A DNA stretch of 61,632 bases, the filler included, from Dugesia japonica (taxonomy: Eukaryota): NCBI GenBank assembly GCA_001938525.1. It is 6 parts of 6 records of this genome, joined end to end, with 100 filler letters (N's around TTAATTAATTAA, not from the genome) between each part and the next. Parts side by side here need not be neighbours in the genome. Positions count along the whole stretch, not along the records: positions 39,466 to 53,010 come from MQRL01618800.1; 5 more parts are not named here. One strand, written 5' to 3'. Positions 11,320 through 60,690 of this stretch are shown one piece after another. Within the stretch, counting starts at the first letter, position 1; every line of letters begins with the position of its first letter. The position numbers and the translations under genes are program-made. Below the pieces are notes generated by a model. That model worked only from the letters and a program-made list of their open reading frames with translations, ran no database searches and was not told where the DNA came from.

Positions 11320-11435
11320 TGTAGTGTTAATATTTTAATACTAATAAACAAATAAATTCATTTGTTTACATATTGTGATTGAAATAAACATTACCAATTT
11401 AAAAGTTGTTATTATGGTGAAATCAGTTAACAATA
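11320..11435 (+). repeat. 5' LTR (116 bp)
   Basis: TGTAGTGTTAA...TTAACAATA; direct repeat of 14364-14479 with 6 mismatches counted by eye. Confidence 0.93.
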
Positions 11436-11436
11436 A

Positions 11437-11451
11437 TGTTGTCAGAAGTGG
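11437..11451 (+). promoter_or_regulatory. Primer-binding site, tRNA-Leu type
   Basis: TGTTGTCAGAAGTGG is one mismatch from TGGTGTCAGAAGTGG, the complement of a eukaryotic tRNA-Leu 3' end; lies immediately after the 5' LTR. Confidence 0.75.
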
Positions 11452-14349
11452 CAAAGAAAACCATATCCAAATCAGAATGCCAAATTACTTCTCAAACTTA
11501 GCAAACTGGTTTGACCAAGTGGATGCAGCTTTTGAGCTATCGAATATCCGAAGTTCAAGCGCAAAATACTTCTACTTACTTATCAGTTTGCCACCAAATA
11601 TACTGGACTTAGTGTCACATGAAATGGATCCACAAGTTGAATCCCTATACGAAAAACTGAAAGCTGGAATAAAACGCAGAACCACAGCAGTTGAAGCCAT
11701 GAATAAATTCTTACAAGAAAGCTGACAGAAATGAAGCAATTTTACAAACTTATTGACCCACATGGAAATCCATACACTTCCAACATTTTGAGACTGAAGT
11801 TCTTGGAATTTTTACCAAAATACATGTGACATCATTTAGTTCAGCACAGAGACAAAAGCCTTGAAGAATAAGTTCAGTCAGCAGAGTATCATTTCGAGAT
11901 AGATGATCAAACTGTCGAAATTAATAACATCAGGCAAATGAGAAATCAACATGACGAAATTACAATCAGCAGCATACGTGATGAGATCAACACAATCAAA
12001 GCCAAACATGGACAAATAATATATAAGATAGCGTCAAACAAAGAGATATGTTACTTCCACAGAAAATTTGGCAAAAATGCAAGAAAATGTCGTTTCATCT
12101 TGCAGTTTCAATTCGGGAAAAGAAAACAGATCTCAATGAAACCGATCACTGAGATCTGAGACGAACCCAAACAGTCGGTAGTAGTGCAATCTATTTTCAC
12201 AATCTCAGGTTGGTCAAACAATAATCAATATCAATTCTTTATTGACTCAGGCGCAGGTATCAGCATTATGCCATATAGAATGTTTATCCCAGATGACAAC
12301 AATGCTAAACATTCATTATTAACTAAAAATGGAAGCGGAATTGTAGTTTATGGTGAAAAGACAATCTCACTTCATATATCAAGTATTCCAGCCACATTTA
12401 AATGGACGTTTACAGTAGCAGATGTCAAGCGTTCAATATTGATATCAGATTTTATGTCAAAACATCGTCTTTTAATAGATTGTCATAGCAATCGGATCTC
12501 CTAAAGACGACAGCACAGTAAATAAAATTTTTGAACTCAGAATGCCTAACGGTTCTGTGAATAGACACAGACGGCCTATTAGTTCATAAACGTGCTCGAA
12601 GATTTGAACCATTAATTATGAAACAAATCAAACTTGAATTTGAAGAATGGACTAAACAAGACATTATTCAACCAAGCAGTAGTGAATGAGCATCTCCACC
12701 GGTAGTAGTCAAGAACATTTCGATCATGCGGCGATTACTGAATGTTAAACCTGACAACAAAGCCAGACAGATATCCACAGATATCTAAAAACTAACTGAA
12801 GTGACAGAAATTGCAACTCCTGATCAACAAAGGACATTTATATTATGCAGTGATGCGTCAAGATCGGCTGTTGAAGGAAGTTTGAACCAAGGGAATAAGA
12901 ACGGTAAGCTGCATCATATTACTTTCTTTTCTAGAAAATTAAAACCTGTTGAATGCAAATATTCCAACTTTTGGCATAAGTACTTTCAATCAAACACTTT
13001 CAGCATTCGATATTAGGTACAAAGTTAATCGCTCACTCGGATCACAAATATTTACTGAGCTCAACGCAAATGAAAAACCCACCAGGAAAACAATAGAAAT
13101 GAACGGATATGCAACAAGATATGCAATTGTGGTACATTAAAGACGAGGAAAATGTAGTTGTAGATTTTCTATCAAGGCAATCAGATGATGACGATGAAAG
13201 AATCATGCAGGAAATTAGTCATGTATCAATAACAAATCTATTGAAAAACCAACAAGATGATCAATCATTGATTGATATTAAACAACACTCGCTGAAACTG
13301 CACAGAACTAAAGAAGGAATATTAGATAACAAATCAAAGACAAATCTCAGAATTGTACTCCCAGATCAATTAAGATTTAATGAATTTGAAAGGCTGCACA
13401 ACCCATGTCACCAGTGTGCTAATGTTACCATCAGATTGATATCAGATCGATATGTATGACCGAAAATGAGATTTCAAATCCGCAATTGGTGTACACACTG
13501 TCTTAAATGTCAAGCAAATAAAGTTTTAAGGCATATAAAAGCACCAATAGGTACACTATCAAACTTAGAAAAATTCAAAGTAGTACATTTGGATATAATA
13601 GAACCTCTACTTTCTATAAAAGGTAAAACATATTTGTTTACCATGATTGATAGAGAAACCTCATGGGCTGAAGTAGCCCCACTAAGAGAAATAACTACGT
13701 CAAGCATAGTTACATTGACAATAAAAGACTGAATAACGCGTTTTGGAGCACCAGGAATTGTGATAACAGACAACGGATGACAATTCGTTTCAAGAGAGTT
13801 CAGCACATTCTGTGAACATTTGAAATTGAGCACAGGTGTACTACACCATATCATCTCCAATGCAATGGAAAGATAGAAAAATTTCATAGAACTCTCAAAA
13901 ATGCATTGTGAACATGGGAGGACAATACAGAACGTGAATGACTTGATGAGACACGAATAATTATGATAGCATTGCATAAAATGGTTAGTGAAGAAACTTA
14001 ACTATCACCATCACAAGTAGTTTTCGGAACAACAGTGAGGTAGCCAGGTGACATCATCCTTACATAATGCTCCAACCAGCAAACAATGATATCGACAGAA
14101 TTCTAAAATAATTGGTTAAGGTCACACGGCTTAACAAAGATGTTCATGGCCATAAAGATGGAAAAATGCAAAAGTGTTTGGATCACAAGTGATAACAGAA
14201 GACCACTTCAGCAAATATATTAAGGACCTTATACAATTACGAATCGAGGAAGTATGGTTAGGTAATGCAAATTATGAGAAAAGGTAAACTGGAAAGTATT
14301 TCAGTGGATAGAACACGCCGAGCATTCATCTTCAAAAAGCCTCCAGATT

Positions 14350-14479
14350 AGAGGGGGCAGTAATGTAGTATTAGTATTTTAATACTAATAAACAAATAAA
14401 TTCATTTGTTTAAATATTGTGATTGGAATAAACATTACCAATTTAAAATTTGTTATTATGGTGAAATCAATTAACAATA
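14350..14479 (+). repeat. Polypurine tract (AGAGGGGGCAG) and 3' LTR (14364-14479)
   Basis: PPT directly precedes the second LTR copy; followed by TSD ATAAG. Confidence 0.92.
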
Positions 14480-14785
14480 ATAAGCTTTGTCCGTCTTTAC
14501 AATCTTCAAGATAAATTTAACAATATTGAGAAGTTCCTTTAGTGTAGTACCAAATTCTACTTTGTGAATCGGTTAGGTCTATTTAAACTTGAGTACATAA
14601 TGAAATTGTTTCGTATAAAGTAAAAATCAACTATTAACGAAACACCATTGTCTAAATCAGTGGTTGCTAATTTGACATAGCATGTGAGCTGCTTTTCTTT
14701 CTCAAAGTTTCCTTCAATATATCTCCAGTAAATATGGTTCTATAATTAAAAATGATTAAAAAATATTTTATAAAAGTAGGGGGAT

Positions 14786-17839: not shown

Positions 17840-18670
17840 AATTAGTTTTTAATTAATTTCAATAAAATTTGTAATGAATTTTGATTAATTTGTAAGGAGT
17901 TTTGATTAACACTTTATTTAATTAATGAATTATAATGATATTTTAATTAATTAATGAATTATTTATTTATTTTATGACAATTTTAGAACAATGCTTATTG
18001 TATAATAAATGATTGTAACAAATCATCTCCATTTATATCATTAATTGAGCTATTAACTAACGCTTCTTCTTCACCGATAAAATCCTCCATAACAATATTT
18101 ACTTCATCCAATTTGAAAATCAGACCATTTTACATCTTTATTATTTTCAAACTCACTGTCAGTCATTATTTCTGTTTCATCTATCACAATATGTATATTT
18201 TCAATAACTTTCTCTTTTTTTATTTTCTTTGCTGGTCTACCATCTATTTTAATCTCTAATATTCTTTCAAATAATTTTTTCTTATTCACTTAAAATGGTG
18301 CTACATGATCCGCATGTAATTTGTAAAAATTTGAATATGCAACTATTTATACTGACCTACATACATGGCATAGATAACACTTTTTGTCATAAAGGATTGT
18401 GCACAGTATTTCTCCATAATACTATGCCAATCACTTTTATGCAATCAATACACACAATAATCCTTACACAACAAACATTGTTATAAAATTGTCATAAAAT
18501 AAATACATAATTCATTAATTAATTAAAATTTCATTACAATTCATTAATTAAATAAAGTGTTAATCAAAACTAATTATAATTCAATAAAAGTTAATGAAAA
18601 ATCCTTGCAAAGTCATCAAAATTCATTACAAATTTTATTAAAATTAATTGAAATTAATTAAAAACAAATT
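17840..18670. repeat. Foldback element: inverted arms about 17840-17993 and 18476-18670 around a coding-like insert
   Basis: Arms are reverse complements, e.g. gttttgattaacactttatttaattaatgaatt vs aattcattaattaaataaagtgttaatcaaaac. Confidence 0.8.
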
Positions 18671-38831: not shown

Positions 38832-40104
38832 CTAAATCGACCAAATCAATATATTCTCTCATTGTAAATTGATAATTCATAGTTATTATAATTTATATGT
38901 ATTATAAATGCAATGAATTAAGACATCTCATATCAATTACAAATGCTTCATATTATCGCATACAAACGTTTAACATAATTTTTCATACTTCAGATTGAAT
39001 CAAGGGTGCAAAACATATGGCCCAGTTATAATTATCATTTTTAAATTAAGTAAACAGATGGATTTTTAATTGAAAATCAATGATTATAGAACAATAAACA
39101 TTTCGCGATATTGATTATATTTGTTTTAAGTTATTTGTTTAATTACAAAAAAAATTAAAATAAAATTAAGAATCCATCTATCAATAAGTAATTAGTGTTT
39201 GTCTAATTTTCATTATAATCATTATTTGTATTCCACACCAAAAGAATCAGCAATTAATGTACTCAGTATATTCAATTTATGAAAGTTGTATTTTCTTTTC
39301 AAATAATCTTAACTGTGCATATCTGGCAGCTAATATGACATTTTATTGACAAAACACAAAAAATGNNNNNNNNNNNNNNNNNNNNNNNNNNNNNNNNNNN
39401 NNNNNNNNNTTAATTAATTAANNNNNNNNNNNNNNNNNNNNNNNNNNNNNNNNNNNNNNNNNNNNAGGAAGAGGAGTAATTGTCTCCTAAATAAAGACAA
39501 TTAGAAGTAAATTTTATTCTAGAGAATTAAGACACAAGAGTTACAAAGCCAAAACCGAAATATAATAGGCAATCAACGAGTCGGACTCTGACAAAATAGA
39601 TTCCGATTCAGAAAATAGGAAACCACTTACAAGGTCCAACACTTCTGGGATATTCACCTCAAGTACAGTCCTAAAAGAAAACCAACTCGCTCGACGAGGA
39701 TCAACAAGGAAACCCAAAAACTCATCACTCTATTTGGACTCAGAAGAGAATATTTGTTCATCCAGGAAATTAGAACTTGACAAGCCAAACCCCAAATCTA
39801 AAACGTTGGAACCCATCAGCTCAAGCAGTAGTCCGAGTGATAAAGAAAATAAAGCTAATCCAAAAACCACATCCAGTAAAACTCCAGTAGCTAGTAATCG
39901 ATCGAGTGGGATAAACTATACATCAGACAAAAAAGAAATCATAAAAGTAGCCGATAGTAATCAAGTAAATATCGACTCATTGGTAATACGGCCAAGCAAT
40001 TTAGAAACTGAAATACCTACATTAGCAAACCAAAACCCGAAAATGGAAACTAATCTCGCAAAAGATAAAAATATGGCAACTAAAACTGAAAACCATCGAC
40101 CAGA

Positions 40105-41000
40105 GTGAAAATAAAATTTGATGGCGAATATTTTAGCGGAATACCGGAAAAGTTAGATGAATTCATCCAGAATTACGAAATGTATGCCAAAATCTGTGGT
40201 TGGGACGAGGAAGCAAAAAGGAAGAGATTACCATTCTACTTGACAGGAGTAGCCAAAACGGTGTTCTGGGATCACACAAAGGGTATGGAAGCCATCCCCG
40301 ATAAATGGGAAGAAGTGGTGAAAATACTAACGGATAATTTCCAAAATTTAAAATTGACTGGCCAGGATTTCGAAAAATTCACGAATCGAAAACAACAAAG
40401 AGGAGAAACTTCACAAGCATATATGATGGAGCTCAAGAGGCGTGGCAAATTAGCCTTAGGAGACAAGTTGGAAGATAGTTAAGTACTCACCATCTTCTTG
40501 AATGGATTACGTGACGAGAACGCCAAGCTAATGGTAAAATTGAGCAAGCCAGTAACTCTACAAGATGCTCTAGCCACGTTGCGAATTGTAGGAGATAGAC
40601 CCTCAGAACGAATTTTGCAAAGTAGAAGGGCAGACAGAGGAAACCACACCACGGATATCAGATTTCATACCCAATACGCAATCAATGATGAAAACTCTGA
40701 CCCCAGGGCAGGAACGGAATAACCGAAATAACAGACCTAATTACCCACGAGGAAATGGAGGAGGATTTAATAACCTTCGGAACAATTGGCAAAATAATCG
40801 AGATATAAAATGTAATACCTATAGAAGACGGGGACATATAGCACGCGATTGTAGAAGCAGAAGTAATAATAACAACAACAATCGATTTTGCATTTATTGT
40901 AAGAAGACCAACCACAACATAGAAACGTGTTTCTTGAAAAATCCAACCGTCTGCTATAAGTGTAACAGAAGGGGACATATGGCAAAAGAATGTCAAAACG
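40105..41000 (+). pseudogene. gag: Gag capsid and three zinc knuckles
   Basis: FSGIPEKLDEFIQNYE...GWDEE...LPFYLTGVA..FW; RKQQRGETSQAYMMELK; FLNGL; CNTYRRRGHIARDC, CIYCKKTNHNIETC, CYKCNRRGHMAKEC. Confidence 0.9.
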
Positions 41001-41419
41001 GAAATCAAACAACTTACAATCGGAATCCGAATACGAATTTGGATAATCTAATGCAAGAAAATGAGAGATTAAGACAACGGGTAAATCAGAACAAGGGACA
41101 AGTTAATTTAGTGCACCAAAATACATTTGGCAATGTATACCACAAGGTGCAACAAGAAAATGATTGGCTCAAGTGGCAAAACCAAGATCTGCAGGTACAG
41201 CAAGAGAGACTCGCCAAAAGAAATCTGCTCAATGAACCGCACAAGAATCAGTGTAATATGGTCAGGACACACCGGCAAATTTATAACCAGTATGACGAAA
41301 CAACCGAAGTTACCGAAATGGAAGATACTCGAAAACGAATATTGATTACGTCGCCAGAATTTGACTGGACCGAAGAGATCATCTATAAAACAATAAAACC
41401 GTCGGTAACGACCACCGGA

Positions 41420-44400
41420 AGAAGACGGGTGATCAACCAGTTGCTCCGATTATATCAGCACCCACAAGTACACTCAAAGGTAAGGGCTAACTGGCAGAAA
41501 ACGATATCGGATTATATCACCGAGCTGTATAAAGAAACCCAGCTAAAAGACTATGAGTTCGAAATTCAATATATATGGCATAGCAACATAGAGGTCATTC
41601 CAAAACGAGTTAAGTTACTATTAAAAGGGTTGACTGTACGACATTTGAAAGAAGCTATGAATGAGATAAAATGGAGCGAAGTAAATGGTATCAAGGATAT
41701 GACTGTAAACCCGCTTCTCGAATTACCACTGTTTAACGTGCAGCAACGATGGAATGGAAAGTGGAGTGAGCACAGATTGCAATTAGGTAATATAGGAATC
41801 AATATTCTTCCAGATGACCGGAATCTAATATATTACGGAGCACGACCCCACGAAACTACCATAATTAAATTTATAAATTGGGATTCGGTATTCCGACCGC
41901 AAACAGTAATTCAGGAAATAGAAACCGACGAACTATATCATAATCTAGAAAAAACATTCCTAAAGAAAATTGTTCCCCTCCAGTCTCAAACGTACATGCG
42001 GAAAAGATTGGGGACAGTAAGGTTAATGGACCATCTGGAATTGGGGCAAATCGAAGCCCCAAGACTATCATTATCCCGAATTGATGAGATACTGGTAGCC
42101 GTCCAGAAACTCCATGATACCATCAGAAGGGATGTATACTTAAAATTGACGAATCGATTATTGGAGTTATTGGAAGTTATAAAATTGATCACCACTGAGG
42201 AAAGCGATTGGACAGAATGGTTACCTGTACATTACGATTGGGTAATATCCAATATGGGATTATCGGATTACCAAGTATGGTTGTATAACTCAGAAGGTAA
42301 AATGAAACTGACTCTTACGGGTTTAATGGTAGAAGATCTGGAATCAGCCCTGAATCAAGCAGGTTATCCATGTGTAACTGATAAATATGTATGTACTCCA
42401 GGTGCAATAGTAGATTTTAATGCAGAAAAAGACATATCTACGATTTCGGAAAAAACCAGGAGAAGAAATCAAACTGGTAATATTGGACAAACGATTACGA
42501 CATATGGGTAACGAAAACCGGAAGATTGGCATTGGAAATCATGAAAGAAATGGAATATCTGTATAAACAAGGAGTAGAACTTATAAAAATAAAGATACTT
42601 TCCACCGTGTTAGGAAAGAAAGACAAACTAACAAAGGAGGAGAGGAAACAGTTGCTAATGACGCGTAACGACTTCCTCAGGCAGCGAATGGAGAGCAGAG
42701 AGGGTAAATGCAACATGATAAAATGCGACAGATGCCATCGAGAGAGGTAGTAGCAATGCGTAAGGTGGAAGAAATGGTTAACCGAGTACAGATGGAATAG
42801 GAGAACTTACCCCGAGAAACCTATTGGATGATAATGAATAGAATCTACGATATATATGATGGACTAGAAATACCGGAGGCGATCGAGAACCAATGGCTCT
42901 TGATTAGGCAGAAGTATGCCAAAGAAATATTGGCAACTACCGAAATTCGGGATTATCAATTATATTTGAATATAGGTACAAATGAACAAGAATTGACTAA
43001 ATACAGCCGATTAAAACCACAAGGAATAACCATGATGGATTTAATGGATGCCATTACTGATAAGTGGCGAGAACAAGGATTAAAAATGGTACCTCTGTTC
43101 ATAAATGGCAAATTGGTAGAAACAGACGACGAGGATAAACACATATTCCAGTGCCATGCGAAGCCCGGAGAAATATGCGAGCTCGATGTAGAAGAAGATC
43201 CACGAATAGAGCGATCGCCAGATCTTGAGGAACGAATGGAAGAGATAACAGAATTATACGTATCCGAAGTATTGTCAGGTATAAAGGAACAAGTAAAAGA
43301 AAATCAGAAAATATAGAATATTGATAACTTACCAATAATCACCACAAAGTCAGTTGTATTTCCGGAAGGGACGCCAACAATACGTGATATTCGGATGAAC
43401 TATACCAAACCGATAACGGAGGAATCCGCCACGTTTCACGCTATCAATGATCTACTAAGAGTAACATGAGAAACGCGATCAGTAGTGAATATCAGGGTAT
43501 ATTGGAAAATGATGAATAACTTACGGGATTTGGCAATCTATGGGAAACTCAGTTTGTGGGCTCGAGCACAATGGTGGAAAGAGAAAAATCTATACGAAGA
43601 AGAAGTACAAAATACGTCCATCATATCCGACTACTCCATCAGAGTTAGTTTGCTCAACAAGGAAGGGCACATAAAAAGGTAGATATGATAACCTTNNNNN
43701 NNNNNNNNNNNNNNNNNNNNNNNNNNNNNNNNNNNNNNNNNNNNNAACTATCCGACACATTTTGAAACCTATAAAAAAATGGTTATGGCCAAAATCGATC
43801 AAGTCCTATAAAATGCAGGTGGGAGCAACCATGATCATACTAACCAAGAAAGAGGATCACATTTTCTTACATGATATTAAACCAGGAGAGGTTACAGATA
43901 TCAAGTTAACACCTCAGAAGATGACGGTAGATATTCCGATACCGAAGATGCCGGATACCGATCAACTTATATTCAACATGATGAGTTTGTATATACAAGA
44001 AATACTACCGGTAGAGAATGAAAGACTCATAAACACTTATGGCGAAAATAAAGCCCAAATAAACATGGTTCGGAGTAAAAACCATGACACCCCAGACCTA
44101 ACCTCAGATGAAGAAGAGCCGGAGGAGGAAATTTCGGAGGATATTGGTCAAGCCCGATTGTTACCATTTAAACAGGATTTCGCTGGTCCTTTCAGTTCTC
44201 CACAGACAGAGCGGATATCGAAGATAATTGCGGATTTTTGTTACTTCCAGGAAAGGATACCTCGAGTAAAGCATTAAATTTACTAATGGATCTGACAAAG
44301 TATACTGAAATAGCAAGGGAAGTTCGTGCCAAGTGGGAATCAGTAATCAAGCCGTATATTGGTACAGTGAAAGCAAGTGCCAGGGGAGAAGATTTTCAAG

Positions 44401-45910
44401 TCACGATAGAATATCTGACACCAAACAAGAAACCAAGGAAGGAACCAGAATCGGCTGTCATGCACATACCACATTTTAACAGCACGTCAGCGAGGGAATT
44501 ACAGGAAATTTTAACATCATTAGATATAGCTGACCAACAGAAAAGCTATGCGATTACAAGCGACCACTTGAGATTTCCGATAAAGTTTGAAGGAAAACAA
44601 CATCTAATGGACGTAGGGTTAAAACCCGGAGAAAATACATGTCTCCAAATACAGAAACTAGAGGATTACATTCCAGGCCCAGTAAAATCTATGGAGGAAG
44701 TAATACAACAATTATTGGAATTATACGAACAAGAAATCAACAGTGGACAGTTATTTGAAATAGTCGACGATAGAACAATGGAGATTAATATTGAATCATG
44801 GGAAGACAGTAAAACATGGGGAAGTTTAGCACGAGTGATAATGAAAATACTCTTAACCTTGGAAGAAAACTTGGAATTATTAAGACATGACAAAGTCATT
44901 CAATTAGTTCTGAAGCTAAATCAATTACGAGCCATAAGTCAAATGCCTGAAGACATAATGGATGTAATATTAAATAAAGCGGTTCAAATGATAACCAAAG
45001 AAGCCGTCAAAGTAACAATCAGATTTCCCGACGAAAGTGAAATTCGTTGGCAAATCCACATGAACGAACTATGGGCCAAGTTGCGGAAGAGGATTGTAAA
45101 ATTTATGAATCAACAACGTAGCCTCGACGAGGAGGAAACTGGAGCGCAAACAGCAGTCCAGGAAGACGACATAGTACTCTATTACAATCACGTAATAGAA
45201 TCAGACCAAATGAGGTTGCCAGTGAAATATATGGGGGTTTGGCCAGGTACTAAATCAAAAATTTATGTAACAGCAAAGGATGAAAAGAGACGACGACCAC
45301 GAGTCTCGGAGGAGAAGTGTAAGTAGAAAGCTAGGGAGTTGGTGGAATATTACGTAGAAGAGATACATCCATTAGTATTCGCTAGGGCTAAACTCACCAC
45401 ACAAGAACAAAATAAACAACGAGTAAAGATGGTAGCAGCTCTGACTAACACCCCGGTCAAAGACGAGAAGCTGGAAGACAATTTACCGAAATTGTTCGAA
45501 TTACTAGTAGGCGATAAGTTGATAAAGCCGGAAATTATACGACGATACAATATAGCCTTACAACAAGATCTGGCCGTAGAAGATCTCAGAAAATTGCGAC
45601 GATTAATACTAGCCATCAAAGTAGCACATGTATGGGATCCAGTTCAGTTCAATAAGATTCTGGTTAAATGGCGGAAAGCAGAGAGGGGCCAGCCCACGCC
45701 ATTGGAAGTTAAATTCAGAATAATTGATCCAGAAGGGGACAAAATCGCGGTTAGAATACCAGTATATAATACAATCAAACACATACGGGATAAGTTACCG
45801 TTTAAGTCACCATACAAACTCTTGGATGAGGACGGAATAGTGGAAGACATCACCATGATTGGATTGATGAAAATAGATTTAGTTAAACCTAATACGTTGT
45901 GGATTTTTCC
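41420..45910 (+). pseudogene. Cargo: about 7 tandem diverged modules, each helical + ubiquitin-like beta-grasp
   Basis: Recurring N.LL.L...W...Y...D(Y/F)(Q/E) followed by T..(D/H)L and a (K/R/W)PGE-hydrophobic strand; last modules align by eye to ubiquitin. Confidence 0.55.
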
Positions 45911-46643
45911 CGAATTAGGAGGTACTCTCACTCGAAAAGACACAGATCCTTTCAAAGTGGCAGGCAAAACTAGGCCAATAATGGGAGAAACCTCAGGTAT
46001 GCTAAAAGAATATAAACACCGCACACAACTAGCGGCTAGTCAAATATTAAGACCCACAACAGATCAATCGGGAAGCACAGAAGTATCCCGAGAAACTAAA
46101 GAAACTCCTAGAACAAGCCAAGATTGGGAACGCGAAATATTTGGATCACCATCAGCAGACGAGTCAGCCGAAGACGAAGACGAGTTACAAATTACAAAAT
46201 ATTCGCCTCCAACTAGAAAAAGGGAGGAAAGAAAGGATAAAGAGCCGACACAAAGTAAAAAATACGACCCTAGCAAGGTTGATTTCGATGAGGAAGACGT
46301 ATTGGACGACCAACCCTTGTCACCGATATTAAGCAGAATAGCCAAGGAATTGCCATCTTCGGTAATGGATGATTTGATGGATACAAACCACCCACTAGAG
46401 ATGGAAAATCCAATGGAAATAGAAGACGAGGAAGTACCGCCAAAGCCAGTACGCACCCATTTTGATGCGGAAACCATTACGGAACCACAAAATAGAGGCC
46501 GACCAAGAACGAAACCTCCGGGAAATCCAGGGGAGGAAGAGGCAATGAAACAAAAACTATTAACAACATCAATAAGTCATCAAACTAAGCGACTAGCAAC
46601 GGTATCTCAAGAAAGATACCACGAAAATCCAACAGATGATGAC

Positions 46644-46920
46644 ATGCCAACCGAAGTAGTAATACGGCAGTTACTGCTAATGTTATATTCAGAATTAAAA
46701 ATATGGATTGGGAAGTTTCAACTATCAGATACTCTCAGACCACTGGCAAAAGAAATAGAAGCAGCTATTAAGAAATTCCCTGCCATTAAAGGCACCAGTC
46801 ATGGTACCAGAGATAATTTAGAAGGAGTCATGGACGAATTACTACAAGATCAGCCAACAAAGGGACGAATAGTAGTATCTTTAGCACATCTGATTAATCA
46901 AACGCATCTATCAATCGCTA
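46644..46920 (+). pseudogene. Bcl-2-like domain (BH3 + BH1), C-terminally truncated
   Basis: SDTLRPLAKEIE (BH3-like, cf. LRRIGDELE), then at Bcl-2-like spacing NLEGVMDELLQDQPTKGRIVVSL (BH1, cf. FEQVVNELFRDGVNWGRIVAF). Confidence 0.6.
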
Positions 46921-46935
46921 GAAGCAAGTCGTCAA

Positions 46936-47986
46936 AAAACTTCATTCTCAGTAAATTACCGAATGCAAGATACCATCGGGCGAATGTACCACGATCTTAT
47001 TCAAAATGACTGCACATTGAATAAAGAAATATTGAAGACAAAGTTAGCAATGGCGGTTACAAATCCAGATAGTGTCACTCCACTACTTATCTCTGGAAAA
47101 GGGACAATTCGGTTGAGTAGTAGGAGAAGTAATGTACCTATACAAATGCAAGGCCATAGATGCCGAGTTCTCATCTAATCCCAAAAACTGCTACAATGAG
47201 ATAGAAATCATACATAATAACGAGAAACGATACGTGCAACCAATTACGCGAATCATATCATCACTGGGTTATAAGCCAAATATCATAAATTGCTCTAATG
47301 TATTCGGACCACAGTATATAATGACCGATGGTTCATGGATAAGATTCCCCCAACGAATGGCAAAGGGGATCGAACCACGAAAATTCTCAATGTTACGATT
47401 AAATGGAGGTATGCAATTCACCCCAATTGATATAAACAAAGGAGGAATATATAGCTGAGAAGATTTAGAAAAGGCAAGAGAATATATCTTGTTCCCAGTC
47501 CGGAGAATGCAAATCTTATCCAACATAGTGCAATTAACTAGTGGAACTAACATAGACGGATGAGTAAATTATGACGCATTATTATCAGCAGACCACTTTC
47601 AAAAGGCCACAGAGAATGTAATGCGGAAAATGTGGGGACGATTTATCATATTTGGACAAGCGATGGCAGGATTGTTGGTAGTTATGCTGATAATTTTGGT
47701 AACACGAGTAGTGATTACTCAATTGTTCGCATGTTTTGATATATACAAAAGAGAGAAGAAAGTGAATTGGAAAATGGTAACNNNNNNNNNNNNNNNNNNN
47801 NNNNNNNNNATGGTGCTTAATAGTCACTCCAAGGATATTGACAGAGTAAAGAGATTCATTCGGAAGCTCGGACAAATACGAGGATCAGACAAGGAAGTTA
47901 TAATGCAACTCAGACTATTATGCGAAGAAATGAGCAACGCAAAAAAGAAAATATCTTATTTCAACCAATTCAAAGAAAGATTTTAG
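46936..47986 (+). pseudogene. Chuvirus-like (Jingchuvirales) class III glycoprotein/env, C-terminal half with TM helix
   Basis: MYHDLIQNDCTLNKEIL...NPD...G...VVGEVMYLYKC...CYNEI....NN...VQPITRII...CSNVFGPQY...W...GGIYS*EDLEKAREYILFP...MWGRFIIFGQAMAGLLVVMLIILVTRVVI. Confidence 0.8.
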
Positions 47987-48569
47987 AATAAAGACGAAAG
48001 TAGTAGTAGCAGCGACGACGATAGAGGGGAAAGCAGTGGAGCCCCTCATGTACCCAGTTATAAAACTGCCATGGAATACCATGCGGAATTCAAAAAACAG
48101 CAATACGAAAAGATCAGTAAGATGCAAAGACTAAAAAATGCGCTAAAATTCGGAGGAGGAGAAAGCACGCCAGCACCAGCACAAATGTATTATAACGCTT
48201 ATCCGCAACATGGTTGGNNNNNNNNNNNNNNNNNNNNNNNNNNNNNNNNNNNNNNNNNNNNNNNNNNGAGAAAGCACGCCAGCACCAGCACAAATGTATT
48301 ATAACGCTTATCCGCAACATGGTTGGCAACCCATGAACCAATTACCTCAACAAGTATGGGCACCAGGTCCCCTGTACAACAATCCGTATATAAGCCCACC
48401 ACAAGCTCCCAATATGGCACTATTAACGAAGAACAATGTATCAACTATGGACCGAAGAATAATCGAACAAAACCTGCGCACTCCAAATAACCAAATTACG
48501 GAGCAGGATAAGTTAGAGACTCAAACTGTATGTATGATGATCTCTCAGAAAGCAAAATTATTACAGAAA

Positions 48570-48880
48570 AGGATAAAAATCGACGGAAGATGGGTAATAG
48601 CTATTATTGATACAGGGGCAAGTACGAAGTTAGTCCATAAAAGGATATTAGAAGATTATCGCCTACTTAGAATAACAATCACTAAAGGAGTTATCATCAC
48701 TGCCTCTGGAGAAAAAATCTCACCAGTGGGAGAAGCAATATGTGCGATAGAAAGCGATGGAACCCAATTCTGGCATAAACTGCAAATAATGAACGAATTA
48801 ACATTCGACTGTTTATTGGGGTTGGACCTCTTACCACGCCTTTGTCCGGAAGGAATACTGGATTTGAGAAAATTAACAAT
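48570..48880 (+). pseudogene. Aspartic protease 1
   Basis: IAIIDTGASTKLV (DTG at 48609-48617), ITASGE, CLLGLDLL. Confidence 0.85.
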
Positions 48881-49184
48881 ACGGGAAAACTATAATCAAG
48901 AAAATGCACCGGTAGGATATCAGAAAACCCGAATAATAACCTAACAGAAACGACCACAACAATGGAATCAGCCACCACCCAACCAGCTGAGACAGCGGCC
49001 AACTGGCCGAAATGAGCAAAACAATTCGAATCAAGACCGTCGGAAAATCACCAATACAGCCACCTTGATAAGGGACGATTGGATAAGGTTCCAAGAACGA
49101 GAACCAAGATGGAAAAACAAAATACCAACAAACTCTAGTCATAACCCTTCAGATGTAGTATGCGCAAGTCTCAATGGCGGACCG

Positions 49185-49510
49185 GTATTAACCATTATAG
49201 TTAAAATCAACGGCTGACCCATAACAGCTCTAGTGGACACCAGAGCAACCATATCATTGCTGTCGATAGATGAAATCGCGATAACCGAATACAAAAACAT
49301 ACTACCCACAAACACTATAGATGATGTGGCAAATGGTAGTAGCCTCAAAATCTTTGGAGAATTGGCCTGTGAAGTCGAATATCAGGATAACAAAATTAAA
49401 CATAATATGATTATAGTAGAAATGATGGGACAGTGCATTCTAGGAACAAATATTCTTCCAGTCTTGATGAAAAATGGTATATTGAACTTCGCGACATTGC
49501 GGTTACAATC
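49185..49510 (+). pseudogene. Aspartic protease 2
   Basis: ALVDTRATISLL (DTG mutated to DTR), VANGSSL, CILGTNIL. Confidence 0.82.
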
Positions 49511-49849
49511 ATCGGAAGGTTATACCCACGTAAAGGATCACGAGGTATTTACTACAGAAGAAATTGTGGTACCTAGTAGATTCCAAGTATCTTGCGTAGT
49601 CAGTACCAAAAGTGCCTATGAAGAAGATTGTTATTTGAACCGTATGACGGATTTGCACACCAGTACGAGCTACCCACGACAGGAGGAATAACCGCGGTCA
49701 ACAAAAGTGGGGAAGTACCAGTTAGCTTAGTTAATTTAAGCCAAACTCCAGGATGGGTACACTAACCCCCATCGAACCAGAACCCGAGGTGATAGAAGAA
49801 ACAGCCCCTGAACCGGAAATTGATAGAACATTTAAAGTGGAAACGGAAA

Positions 49850-52420
49850 CTTTGTCAGAAGACCAGAAACAAGCAATACTTCAATTTTTGGAAGAATTCC
49901 GAGATATTTTCGCATGAACCAATGAAGAGTTGGGTGTGTGCATCGCAACAATGCACACAATTCCATTAACGGATGAAACGCCATGTAAACAGAAACCATA
50001 AGCCATGACAGTGGAGAAAAAAGAATTTGCAAATAAAGAAACAGCTAAGTTAGTGAAAATCGGTGTGATAGAACCTAGCTGCTCACCATGGCAGTCACCA
50101 GTGGTGTTAGTAGATAAAAAGGATGGGACACAACGATTCTGTATTGATTACCGAAGATTAAATGCTCAAACTAAAAAGGATACTTATCCGTTGCCAGATA
50201 TCAACGAATTATTGCAACTACTATGTAATGCTAAGATATTCACCACGTTGGATCTGCGAAGCGATTACTGGCAAATAAAAATCAAACCAGAAGATAGAGA
50301 GAAAACGGCTTTTTCCACATGCAAAGACTTGTATTAGTTTATCCGTATGCCATTTGGACTTACTAATGCAACAGCCTCTTTCCAACGAATGAGGAATTAC
50401 GTAACTCACGGCATATCTCAATGTATGGCCTATATTGATGATCTAATAATCTATTCGCCAACCTTTGAAGGGCACCTTAATGACTTACGTAGTGTGTTTG
50501 TACGACTACGTAAATGGAATCTAAAAGTGAAACCCACCAAATGCGAATGGGCCAAGAATAAAGTAACATATTTAGGCCATTTAATATCGGATAAAGGCAA
50601 AGAACCGGATCCGTGAAATACGGAGAAGATACGAAATCTAGCACCGCCAAATTGTGGGCTTAAAATAAAGGAATTTCTCGGTCTCGCGAACTATTATCGA
50701 AAATTCATTAAGGATTTCGCTAAAATTGCGAAGCTGATGCAGGAGTTGGTTAAACAAGATACTGCCTTTATATCTGGACCACAACAACAACAGTCGTTTG
50801 AATCATTAAGAGATAAATTACTAACTGCACCAATTTTGGTACACCCTGATTTCAAGAAGCCATTTATATTAGCCACCGACGCGAGTGGATACGCGATGGG
50901 TGCAGTGTTGAGTCAATTAGATGAACAAGGCAGAGAAAGAGTAATCGCATATTTTAGCAAGAAATTTCAAGGGGCAGAGTTAAACTACAGTACTACAGAA
51001 CGAAAAATAATGGCTATTGTAAAAGCCACCAAACATTTCCGATCACTCATACACGGTCACGAAGTATTAATTTACACGGATCATTTACCAATCACTTTCG
51101 TGGCACAAAAAACACTACGATGGAATAGAATGGCAAAATGGCAACTAGCAATGCAAGATTATTGTCCTCTATTAAAATTTAAAACGGACAAAGCCAACTC
51201 AAATGCGGATTGTCTGTCAAGAATCGGTGGACCAGAAGTCACAGAGGATGCACCAGAAGACACAGAAACATTTACATTGCGAGAATTATTAGAGAAAAAA
51301 GTAGGAATGGTATACTTTATACTAGCTGAAGATAGAAACTTCGATGGATTAAAACAAGCACAGGCAGATGACGAGGAGATCAAGATCATCACGAAATATA
51401 TGGAAAATTATAACTTGGAGAAGTTAGAATGTGAACCTAAGATGAAGGAATATTTAAAGAAAAACGGAGGGCGTTATGCGGTCACTAAAGAATGGCTGAC
51501 AGCTCAAGATGGAGAAAACACCGTGTTAGTCATCCCTAAAGCAAGACGGGATAAATTACTTGAACAGTATCACAATGGTGTACTTGGCGGACACATGTCT
51601 CATAAGAAAACCAAATCCAAATTAAGGCAGAAATATTACTGGCCACATATGACAGAATCAGTGAAGGAATGGATTGCTAAATGCCAGATATGTGCTGCCA
51701 GACGAGGAACAGGAAAAAGAGTAAAGGCGTTATTAAAACCTATTGCAGTACCAGCGATGCCAATGGAAATCATAGCTATGGACGTAGTTGGACCATTACC
51801 ACCAACCCTAAGCGGAAATATCTACATACTTTCCATAATGGATTATTATTTCCAAAGGCATTTCCTATGAAAAATCAAAAAGCAACCACCATAGCAGATA
51901 TTCTGGTACGAAAGTTTTTCAGTAGATACGGTACTCCGAAGAAAATATTGACCGACCAAGGAAAAAATTTCATGAGCAATATAATAGCAGAGATATCAAA
52001 CTTCCTCAAAATACACCAACTACGGACATTACCGTATCATCCTCAGACGGATGGATTAACAGAGAGGTTTAATAAAACCCTGATCAATATGTTGTCCAGT
52101 TACGCTCAAAAGGAACAAAATAACTGGGATAAACATATTCAACTATGCCTATTTGCATATCGGATGAGTGTTCAACCAGCAACTAAATACACTCCATTCG
52201 GCCTTATGTATGGCAGAGAGTGCAACATGCCTATTGATTTGGAATTCCAACCACCGATAACACAATATCAAGACGAAACAGATTTTGCGGCCAATTTCAA
52301 GGAGACCATGCAGAAAATATGGAAACAAGCCAAGGAGAATGTAGGATTCTACCAAGAAAGTTATAAAGATTTACACGATATAACAGCCGTGCAACATTCC
52401 TTTAAAAAAGGCGAATTTCA
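49850..52420 (+). pseudogene. pol: RT - RNase H - integrase
   Basis: SPWQSPVVLVDKKDGTQRFCIDYRRLN, RMPFGL.NA.ASFQ, AYIDDLII, LATDASGYAMGAVLSQ, YTDH, ADCLSR, HNGVLGGH...CQIC, MDVVGP, TDQG, YHPQTDGLTERFN. Confidence 0.96.
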
Positions 52421-58222: not shown

Positions 58223-60690
58223 CAAGCCTGCACAACATATGGCCCGTAAGGTTTTTTGATGCGGCCCTCAACCCTTTTTAAAATTTCATAAAAATGTCAA
58301 ATAAAAAATCGAAATTTATATTTTTGTTTCTTATATAAAGCCTTTTTATTATTTTTTCTACGCAATTTAATAAAATTTTCTGTATTTCATTAAAAATTGT
58401 TTATGACCTCTCCATAAAAAATATTTCCAACGCTTTAATTATTTTTAATTCGAAAATTTTATTTCGATTTGTTATTTTATATCAAATTATTTATATAACT
58501 TTAGCTGCACTATAGAATTTTTCAAATGTTTTTACGTTTTCATTTTTAAAATAACTTTAGTGTATTTATTTTATTGATAAGAGAACATTTGCTTCTTTTA
58601 TAATTTAAAAAAATTATATTTAAAGCTTAATTAATTTAAACATTTAATACTATAAGTTAAATTAATTTAAAAATTTATATAATAGATTATACAATGAGTG
58701 AAAAGAAAAATATAAACTGAGCGTAGAATATTTACTGGGAATGGACAACCCGATATCTATTTACTTTATTGCAAGATAAGATAATTTGTCTCGTTTGCCG
58801 TGAAACAATACCAGTCTTAAAGGAATATAATCTTCGTCGCCACTTTGACACCAAACACCAAACATTTAAATTTGATGAAAAAAAGAAAAAACACAAAGCA
58901 GCGACTTTAATGTCAGCCATAAGTGAAGAGCAAAACATTTTAAAGAACATTGTAGCAGAGAATAAAACAGAAACTCGCGTAAGTTTTCAGATTTCAAACG
59001 AAATTGCTGCTGGAAAAGTCTTTATTGAAGGGGAATTTGTGAAGGAATGTATGTTAATGGCAGTTTTTAATTTATGTCCGGAAAAAAAGAAAAGGTTTGA
59101 GAATTTTAGCTTATCAAATATGACAGTACAAAGAAGAATAACTGAAATTTCAGCAAATATCAATGATCAACTCAAAAAAAAGCTCGGGAATTTTCATTCT
59201 TTCATTTGTGTATGAACGAAAGTACAGATTTACAAGATATTGTCCAACTTAATGTTTTTATTAGGAGAATTGATTAACATTTTAATATTACTGAGAAGTT
59301 TGTTGGAATATGCTCCATATCTGGACGCACGACAGGAAAAGTATTATTTAATGAAATGACAAAATGTTTGACCGACAATTTGAATATTGATTTTTCTAAC
59401 TTGGAAGCCCTTTGAACAGATGGCACCCCAACTATGTGTGGAAAAAATATTGGTGCTGACACACTCCTTTAAGAATTTACTGGGAAGAAAATTATACAAT
59501 TACACTATATTGTGCATCTTTTAACTTTTGAATATGTAATGAAAGTGATAGTTTATGTTGTTAACTATATTCGATCTAGTGNACTTAAGCATANAACTTT
59601 TAAGGCTTTTTTAGAAGAAGTGGATAATTGAGTGGATAAGTGGTTGAGCCGTGGACGGACGCTACAGCATTTTGTTGATTTGAGATCCGAAATTGTTGCT
59701 TTTCTTCAAAATAAATCACGAAAATTTCTTGAACTTCAAGATGACGCTTGGAATTTCGATTTATTTTTCTTCTGTGATATTATACAGCATTTGAATGATT
59801 TGAATATGCTACTTCAAGAAAAAAAAACAATCTATATTTTGAATTGTTAGCTGCCGTGAGAGCTTTTAAAATAACGTTGAAACTTTTCAGAAGTAAATTT
59901 TTAAAAAGTGAAATGTCTCATTTTCCTACTTGCAAGCAACAAACAAAATAAATCAAGAACAATAATATGCAGAACAAGTCAATTGGCAAAGAATTTGAGA
60001 GAAGATTTGCCTTATCTGATGAAACATAGGGTCATCTAAAAATAATTGAAGATCCATTTTCTGTTGACATTGAACATGTACCACTTGAGTTGCAGTTTAA
60101 GGTTATTGAATTCCTGTTTTCAATATATTTTATAAAAGGAATTACAGGGAAAAAACTTACTGAATTTTTACAAAAGTTGGGACAAATATAAAAAAAGGAA
60201 TAGAATTTGCAATTAAAATGCTCAGCATTTTTGGTAGCACTTACTTATGCAAACAAATCTTTTCACTAATGAATTTTAATAAAAATAAACATCGTTCTTG
60301 TAATTGCAATTATTGTGAGAATAATTAATGGACTTTACCATTGATTGTATTTGAGATTTCATTAAAATAAAGAAAAGCTTCAATCAAAATAAAATGATCA
60401 AAACTTTTTTTCATTTTTTATTGAAATCGTTCTTGTCTTACAAATGAACACATGAAAGACATTTTAAGAACAGCAACATGAAATATGACACCAGAATATG
60501 ATAAGCTTGTCAAGAAAAAGAAGTGCAATACTTCTCATTAAATTTTTTAAAGATATATTTTATTAATATAATTTAAAACATATTTTTTTTACTTTATTAT
60601 TATCAAACATAGTCTTTTATATTAATTCTGGACCTCAACAATTTTCCCTGAAATTCTTGACCCTTAAAGCAATCTAAGTTGTGTTGTTTC
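58223..60690 (+). mobile_element. hAT transposon, SPIN/GTF2IRD2-like transposase pseudogene
   Basis: Left end CAAGCCTGCACAAC; ICLVCRETIPVLKEYNLRRHFDTKH; GEFVKECM; ESTDLQDIVQL; TDGTPTMCG; WLSRG; FGSTYLC; degenerate right end near ...AAGTTGTG. Confidence 0.9.

Follow-up and report, generated by a model that had tools for sequence, protein, structure and literature searches.

The window analyzed here, a stretch of 61,632 nucleotides (nt) of the planarian Dugesia japonica (assembly GCA_001938525.1), carries on its plus strand a decayed Ty3/gypsy-type GAG-ENV-POL retroelement with an array of about seven tandem modules behind Gag. The array is real, and its units 1–5 are repeats of one another. 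Each module consists of a helical part followed by a part that we infer to be ubiquitin-like, from its homology with a module of related polyproteins. An earlier note, made from the sequence alone, had proposed an amplified array of helical plus ubiquitin-like units; this proposal was upheld, since the repeats proved significant and the relatives hold none to two modules with a clear ubiquitin fold. In the reading that we favor, to which we give about an even chance, the array would be a multivalent platform, not itself conjugated, to which host proteins of the ubiquitin and SUMO pathways bind as to a lure or an adaptor.

Seven units were delimited by eye, with an X placed at each break (Table 1). 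Closing motifs were found at 41837, 42450, 43158, 43876, 44619, 45237 and 45882, at a spacing of 613–743 nt, and units 1–6 have one extra helix behind the ubiquitin-like part. The helical motifs quoted in the earlier note were present where it had placed them, and its closing motifs were present at the seven sites, the second being KKPGEE in frame and not EKPGEE; the units begin 20–40 residues upstream of the starts it had given. Self-BLAST of six segments gave in-register matches spaced by multiples of roughly 700 nt, the best with an E value of 3e-7, so that the absence of internal repeats, which the note had regarded as fatal to its claim, was not what the self-alignment returned. Leave-one-out profiles of the seven units scored units 1–5 at 13–45 bits, values reached by 0 of the 880–998 reported shuffles. 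When all six raw frames of the window were searched over its full length (822 pieces), the left-out units 1–5 were recovered with E values from 8e-16 to 3.7e-4, and the best match outside the array had an E value of 0.25. Units 1–5 had a summed leave-one-out score of 192.8 bits; in a full null in which all five units were shuffled, realigned and rescored (60 sets), the highest score was 9.5. Additionally, the content of guanine and cytosine (GC) at the three codon positions was 0.46–0.49, 0.30–0.31 and 0.38–0.43 in the array, compared with 0.47, 0.35 and 0.34 in pol, and the coding signature of the array resembles that of pol.

The leave-one-out test did not recover units 6 and 7, whose scores were reached by 73 of 992 and 372 of 895 shuffles, respectively. 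The claim of seven repeats held in this test for five units, and the other two were recovered by a profile of 15 modules taken from the relatives (Table 1). On that profile, units 1, 5 and 3 matched weakly (reached by 2 of 481, 4 of 471 and 20 of 493 shuffles). In the module tree, modules 1–5 clustered (80/78, not starred) and module 6 fell among the modules of the relatives, and the one-clade test for all seven modules gave a p-AU of 0.42. By sequence, modules 6 and 7 are placed outside the close set formed by modules 1–5.

When the array was used as query, no homologue was found among 7,996 candidates of 519–1,654 residues. A search of 1.84 billion representatives returned two matches, a Listeria Ig-like protein and a low-complexity repeat, and both were rejected as unrelated repeat proteins. 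The relatives were reached through pol alone: a query with RNase H/integrase gave 106 proteins, and P0109, a protein of 3,735 residues, is a cluster member of the second match. P0109 is encoded by a single open reading frame (ORF) and comprises Gag, two zinc knuckles, two helical plus ubiquitin-like modules, an acidic linker, a helical domain, the whole env, two proteases, reverse transcriptase (RT), RNase H, integrase and a membrane tail. Its env-pol region as query gave 37 proteins, 13 of which have the env-before-pol order of P0109. Two modules were counted in 4 of these 14 proteins, one in 7 and none in 3, with a profile built from the same proteins that it counted; P0115 begins downstream of the place of the module, and P0112 and P0114 lack Gag and are possibly incomplete. 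One or two modules each were also counted in seven metagenome loci that were retrieved with the pattern of the module itself; one of these loci, L006, encodes a protein of the P0122 type. Viral contigs gave two weak RT matches and, among 80 pattern matches, no relative of the module. In the RT-RNase H tree (32 rows), the window grouped as sister to 17 relatives (97/94), but its branch is long and its position therefore insecure; its RT is 46–49% identical to those of the env-before-pol relatives. Residues 2928–3016 of P0112 form an extra ubiquitin-like stretch past the integrase (18.8 bits, on a profile partly built from the other module of P0112).

The evidence for the ubiquitin fold comes mainly from the module of the relatives. 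Eleven env-proximal modules, 19–74% identical, were aligned (alignment A2). Against Pfam, 4 of the 11 matched ubiquitin (best E 6e-6), 2 matched Rad60-SLD and 2 UBX, and the A2 profile matched IQUB (E 1.9e-6), ISG15 and ubiquitin in the PDB. An AlphaFold model of the module, with a predicted local distance difference test score (pLDDT) of 91, has four helices (residues 2–74) followed by a beta-grasp (81–154), and was superposed on domains of ubiquitin, SUMO, ISG15 and Rad23 (Z 12.7, root-mean-square deviation 2.1 A, 77 residues; Foldseek and VIA-align). As modelled, the module of the relatives is a helical bundle joined to a ubiquitin fold, which bears out, in the relatives, the fold that the earlier note had proposed for the window units; the window units are assigned it by homology.

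This homology is drawn from the profile matches together with the equal place of the modules in the polyprotein. The profile of modules 1–5 matched A2 over 26 columns at the closing motif (probability 55%, E 1.2e-4). Module 6 was aligned by hhalign with the module of the relatives over 92 columns in register (E 0.025, yet with a probability of 1.9%) and module 7 at E 0.055; module 6 also matched Pfam UCH_UBL1 at E 0.0011, below the cut-off. Modules 5–6 as query gave no usable match in the Atlas search and one chance match in the PDB sequence search, and the alignment of module 6 into whole polyproteins gave a scattered result. The direct link of modules 1–5 to ubiquitin folds is weak and the scaffold is rich in gaps, which would suit a different repeat that merely resembles the ubiquitin-like module, or an array created by misassembly. 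Nevertheless, the sole gap within the array is bridged; the units are only 11–23% identical in pairs, so they are not a collapsed or doubled repeat; and the strand, helix and closing motifs of window and relatives' modules stand in register in a joint alignment. The Atlas features of module 3 also lie near clusters of Rad60-SLD (SUMO-like) and ubiquitin (0.84–0.87), which is a lead only. We regard such a different repeat or artefact as very improbable.

The helical part was not identified in Pfam scans or PDB profile searches, and the fold lists were dominated by the ubiquitin part. A near-invariant Trp lies in its last helix in window modules 1–5. This residue, the four-helix bundle in the model of the relatives' module and an RGRPR motif ahead of env, which we take to be AT-hook-like, would be consistent with a chromatin tether. 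In such a tether, bundles resembling the TFIIS N-terminal domain (TND) or integrase-binding domains would act with the AT-hook-like motif to hold the integration complex or elongation factors on AT-rich chromatin, and the ubiquitin-like part would be a spacer or a second face. LEDGF is a chromatin tether of this type for lentiviruses. The leucine spacing of the helical part is, we assume, TND-like. TND, Med26 and IWS1 had no match in the Pfam scans or in the PDB profile searches with the helical part. Moreover, the Trp is not conserved in the module of the relatives, and the RGRPR-like motif, found in the window, in 6 of the 14 relatives and in metagenome locus L003, is missing from the remaining 8. 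A tether seems unlikely to us.

The earlier statement that no C-terminal diglycine is present had to be corrected, as a diglycine closes unit 7, the only window module with one. Modules 1–6 have none at their ends, nor do 15 of 15 modules of the relatives, and the C-terminal diglycine of a conjugatable (type I) modifier is thus absent from them. The position of the diglycine directly past the predicted last strand of module 7 could mean that the ubiquitin-like domains mark cuts by host proteases, as in cytopathic pestiviruses, and that Gag and the array are freed at this point from the membrane-bound Bcl-2/Env part. Bovine viral diarrhea virus (BVDV) and classical swine fever virus provide the precedent, as far as it is described in PMC8310069. 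A processing signal of this kind is quite unlikely in our judgment, given that all the other modules lack the diglycine, that the element already has two proteases of its own and that five extra modules would be left unexplained.

The binding platform that we favor would work as follows. The intact element would be translated as a whole from one ORF, and env would be placed in the lumen by a signal-like stretch ahead of it and an anchor behind it, with Gag and the cargo, as well as Pol, left in the cytosol. A hydrophobic stretch directly ahead of env was found in 8 of the 11 proteins scanned (at a chosen threshold) and none in the array; hence Gag and the cargo are probably cytosolic, with the array produced one-to-one with Gag. 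The cargo might then be freed by the proteases of the element, and perhaps also by a hydrolase of the host that cuts at module 7's diglycine. The lack of the diglycine, and of an Ile44-type residue in most modules, suggests that the ubiquitin-like domains stay integral to their protein and, through a surface that is not the standard one, would bind partners and would not be ligated. The 11 sequences of A2 keep a Cys-Gly pair and, at the surface, an acidic DDDE motif, and this acidic stretch is a candidate binding surface. Starting from one or two ancestral modules, five more copies would have arisen in the window lineage as the accessory region of a Burro-like Gag-Env-Pol polyprotein was extended by duplication, and their diversification would have raised the valency or the range of targets. 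The pay-off would be relief from host control, for example from SUMO-scaffolded PIWI-interacting RNA (piRNA) silencing or from turnover of the polyprotein, beside a Bcl-2-like anti-death domain. In Drosophila, SUMOylation of Su(var)2-10 is described as a scaffold for piRNA silencing (PMC8490990). An anti-silencing or decoy role of the array would be plausible.

The same expansion could be structural or nearly neutral, the modules being folded spacers or particle assembly domains between nucleocapsid and anchor that were duplicated by template switching and kept only for folding and frame. The number of modules ranges from 0 to 7 within the clade, where other cargo (ankyrins and extra proteases) was also gained and lost, and the low identity among units and the loss of the Ile44-type patch point the same way. 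Set against this are the retention of DDDE and Cys-Gly in relatives as divergent as those of A2, the cost of about 4.5 kb of extra genome and the adjacent Bcl-2-like cargo, which suggests modulation of the host. We hold the structural explanation to be unlikely.

Several observations weigh against the binding platform itself. The ubiquitin and SUMO structure scores were tied for the relatives' module, so SUMO mimicry is not singled out. The column aligned with Ile44 is polar or charged in 9 of the 11 relatives, with one Ala and one Val, and is not uniform in the window modules, which argues against binding to ordinary ubiquitin receptors. Modules 4 and 2 do not score on the profile of the relatives (reached by 74 of 493 and 161 of 446 shuffles), and the profile of modules 1–5 found one ubiquitin-like structure, weakly (the ubiquitin-like domain, UBL, of hPLIC-2; E 0.28, rank 4 of 7). 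The structure prediction suggested earlier, which gave the confident beta-grasp in relatives, returned a pLDDT of 33 for a single-sequence model of modules 5–7, and its fold searches gave common helical matches only. The module is missing in two full-length relatives and is therefore dispensable in some lineages. SUMO-dependent silencing is documented, in the source cited above, for Drosophila and not for the host of the element. Furthermore, no contig of other copies spans the array, so seven modules in a row are known for the window copy only, and in four RNA runs (6–25% of each run) 10, 84, 3 and 8 reads were found among 10.5–13.6 million records per run.

These RNA reads are nearly all partial and diverged, and expression of the window copy was not seen in the four runs; nor was any RNA run listed as containing the stretch. 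The element family is multi-copy: in each of four DNA-type runs (three from one organism and one from another), 30 of 30 bins were covered, by 7,973–43,852 contigs, mostly less than 95% alike, and the array bins were covered like those of gag and pol, depth not being a measure of copy number. The 40 best-supported of 2,488 rows of differences include 16 places of the array where the window departs from most contigs. At 14 of them the residue is altered, the other two being a silent difference and a stop, a pattern that indicates decay of the window copy. In reads of a diverged subfamily, 6 of the 7 differences listed for module 3 fall on third codon positions and 5 are synonymous, a small sign of purifying selection. 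The description of the array as rapidly diverged was not borne out, as the low identity among the units fits an old duplication equally well and the 7 classable sites of module 3 are mostly synonymous.

A combined reading, which we likewise judge improbable, would join several of these elements: a TND-like bundle with a SUMO/ubiquitin-like domain, in seven specialised copies and with the AT-hook, would enter the nucleus with Gag, tether chromatin, soak up the SUMO silencing scaffold and be released at the diglycine. If true, this would be, within the literature searched, the first case of a retrotransposon that encodes a multivalent antagonist of piRNA silencing with a ubiquitin fold. An anti-silencing role of the binding platform, if true, would count as a clear example of counter-defence by a transposon; to our knowledge, animal retrotransposons have few known anti-silencing proteins. 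The module is a small foldable unit (about 155 residues, modelled with confidence in a relative) with which the 2019 idea that Burro-like elements disturb host ubiquitination can be tested. The spread of module number within one clade makes the question of an arms race testable by comparison alone.

Table 1. Features of the retroelement in the window (all on the plus strand); left-out E is the E value of a unit that was left out of the profile.
Feature	Position (strand)	Evidence and remarks
Decayed Ty3/gypsy-type GAG-ENV-POL retroelement body	39466..52420 (+)	5' end, scaffold gap; 3' end, inside the integrase tail
Gag capsid-like region	40090..40591 (+)	Retrotrans_gag E 0.0035; tblastn to P0109 residues 21–146, E 5e-5
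Two CCHC zinc knuckles	40823..40996 (+)	zf-CCHC E 1.8e-5, two stretches
Module 1	41351..41971 (+)	Helical part, putative ubiquitin-like part with long insertion, trailing helix; left-out E 1.9e-10
Module 2	42056..42594 (+)	Frame changes near 42430–42500; left-out E 3.7e-4
Module 3	42744..43310 (+)	Left-out E 8e-16
Module 4	43410..44028 (+)	Left-out E 1e-5; includes 50-N scaffold gap 43696–43745, bridged by contigs of three runs
Module 5	44194..44762 (+)	Frame change near 44255; left-out E 3e-12 (3.1e-12)
Module 6	44820..45389 (+)	Closest to the conserved module of the relatives; 17.0 bits, 0/496 shuffles on the relatives' profile
Module 7	45495..45923 (+)	Terminal diglycine 45918–45923, right after the predicted last strand; 7.3 bits, 0/480 shuffles on the relatives' profile
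Acidic linker, likely disordered	46050..46470 (+)	140 residues, with 38 D/E and 19 K/R
RGRPR motif, presumably AT-hook-like	46494..46508 (+)	Sequence motif
Likely Bcl-2-like helical domain	46614..46940 (+)	Ends after a BH1-like stretch; 23–24% alignment with the pre-env domain of L003 and L006
Fusion glycoprotein of the glycoprotein B (gB) type (Monjiviricetes), C-terminal half and membrane anchor	46954..47782 (+)	PF24664 profile positions 319–578, best E 2e-15
Tandem aspartic-protease domains	48573..49580 (+)	48573–48881 and 49194–49580; Pfam E 5e-6 and 0.007; P0109 alignment
Reverse transcriptase, RNase H, integrase	49738..52415 (+)	Pfam; 43–45% identity to P0109; stops and one frame change

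Throughout the window, the element is surrounded by an AT-rich animal scaffold with many gaps, and the GC content is 0.39 in the element block (39466 to about 52420) compared with 0.26 in the flanks. Five scaffold spacers (44 N, TTAATTAATTAA, 44 N) in 8356–53110, two of them at or near the ends of the element, are assembly artefacts. The element is colinear with the intact one-ORF relative P0109 and, judging from its domains, is a decayed Ty3/gypsy GAG-ENV-POL element of the planarian Burro/errantivirus kind. A single open frame (40592–42508) holds the zinc knuckles and units 1–2; frame changes occur in the array near 42430–42500, 42720, 43680 and 44255, together with four in-frame stops. The N-terminal half of env is missing in the window copy, the alignment to the env of P0109 starting only at residue 1608, and a hydrophobic stretch lies at 47639–47743. 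The interval between protease and RT (49586–49744), where Burro/GYPSM1 elements have a dUTPase-like stretch, aligns with P0109 residues 2296–2347, and P0109 has no PF00692 match. No terminal repeat was present among the repeat families shown for the window, and the element ends in a gap and a truncation; no long terminal repeat (LTR) was seen.

The domain ahead of env is likely Bcl-2-like, as suggested by weak scores and by the published order of domains. The pre-env domain of L003 matched Pfam Bcl-2 at E 0.023 and Bcl-2 rows of the PDB at E 0.56 and 2.1, all weak scores. The corresponding stretch of the window, which is shortened, had no Pfam or PDB match of its own and was missed by a profile built from four sequences of the helical domain ahead of env. 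A contig common to three runs skips 1,317 nt (46519–47837), losing the Bcl-2-like and env parts, and represents another deletion form of the family.

Other features were observed in the relatives. Two or three tandem aspartic proteases are present in P0112–P0118 and P0124, some of them past the integrase, P0124 having at least three there. Ankyrin repeats occur as cargo between or after the proteases in P0110 (2122–2332) and P0124 (about 1500–1730), as in Burro. The C-termini of P0003, P0005 and P0109–P0122 have a second membrane protein past the integrase, flanked by hydrophobic stretches, and P0005 has a further copy ahead of the protease. P0084, P0127, P0133 and P0138 are other Ty3/gypsy polyproteins with a PF24664 env, outside the clade in the RT tree; in P0084 env precedes the protease.

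Elsewhere in the window, a small LTR-like element was found at 11320–14481, with 118-nt direct repeats, 95% alike and 3,044 nt apart, which enclose an ORF with DUF7041 (E 5e-10) and a weak protease match. An ORF at 58727–59212 with a Spin-doc zinc finger (zf-C2H2_12, E 3e-10) is likely a DNA-transposon relic, and the region 17867–18602 resembles a miniature inverted-repeat transposable element, with 139-nt inverted repeats, 88% complementary and 458 nt apart.

Among the closest known systems are Burro and GYPSM1, giant gypsy-like LTR retrotransposons, a kinship that the earlier note had overlooked. In the parts of PMC6431247 that describe them, where Grohme 2018 and Jurka 2007 are cited as sources, these planarian polyproteins have Gag, a Ubi2/SUMO-like motif before a BCL2-like domain, and env between BCL2 and protease. 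That source also places decayed copies of this type in Dugesia japonica, and its authors suspect that Burro-like elements interfere with ubiquitination and apoptosis. The likeness covers the single polyprotein, Gag followed by CCHC knuckles, a Ubi2/SUMO-like domain upstream of one that is likely BCL2-like, env in frame before the protease and then RT, and the existence of decayed copies in some species. Gag (retrotrans_gag) and the knuckles are present in the window at the N-terminus. The order with env between gag and pol is also present, in a single frame in relatives such as P0109 and broken in the window copy. The Ubi2/SUMO-like domain upstream of the likely BCL2-like one is strong in the relatives and assigned by homology in the window. 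By contrast, the passages of PMC6431247 on these elements name one Ubi2/SUMO-like motif, whereas the window has about seven, every one of them paired with a helical domain. MATH, BIR, AIR1, Smc and ankyrin domains of Burro1/GYPSM1 had no match in the 22 window stretches scanned, ankyrins being found in relatives P0110 and P0124. Burro1/GYPSM1 elements exceed 30 kb and have long LTRs; only 13 kb are visible here, without LTRs. The element is Burro-like and not Burro1 in the narrow sense.

GAG-ENV-POL errantiviruses with an env of the herpes simplex virus/gB type are reported from Platyhelminthes, Nematoda and Bryozoa (PMC13524379, and Sacco 2022 as cited there). The element shares with them the Ty3/gypsy pol (protease-RT-RNase H-integrase), the gB-type (class III) env before pol, of which the window has the C-terminal half (PF24664) and the relatives the whole, and the multi-copy state; by eye, the env of P0109 resembles the listed env of Smed_errantivirus_1/2. 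The window copy differs in not being intact. Ubiquitin has no match in the main text of PMC13524379 or in its supplements (cells to 400 characters). Two other elements were ruled out on the published descriptions available: Troyka (PMC12440569), which has no env, and Anakin, a BEL/Pao element with a chuvirus glycoprotein, as the pol of the window is of the Ty3/gypsy type.

The relatives P0109–P0122 and L003–L009 have the same order and a homologous helical plus ubiquitin-like module, and they differ in having 0–2 modules, no trailing helix seen and no diglycine. The SUMO-like domains (SLDs) of Rad60, Esc2 and NIP45, as well as ISG15, OASL and the Rad23 UBL, are likewise integral beta-grasp domains for binding, at times in tandem; identity with them is 8–22%, and the window modules are on a mobile element and paired with a helical bundle. 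Cytopathic pestiviruses also have a ubiquitin fold within a viral polyprotein (BVDV, in the account of PMC8310069). Their insertions, however, were captured recently from host ubiquitin and have an end that can be cleaved, whereas the window domains are old and diverged, with a diglycine in module 7 only. In the entries that the literature searches listed, no tandem array of this type or helical plus ubiquitin-like module was described for a retrotransposon; Grohme 2018 and Sacco 2022 may describe more cargo. What was already known is the type of element and the single Ubi2/SUMO-like domain, and what is new is the set of about seven modules, compared with none to two in the 14 relatives, in a multi-copy family and with a diglycine closing unit 7.

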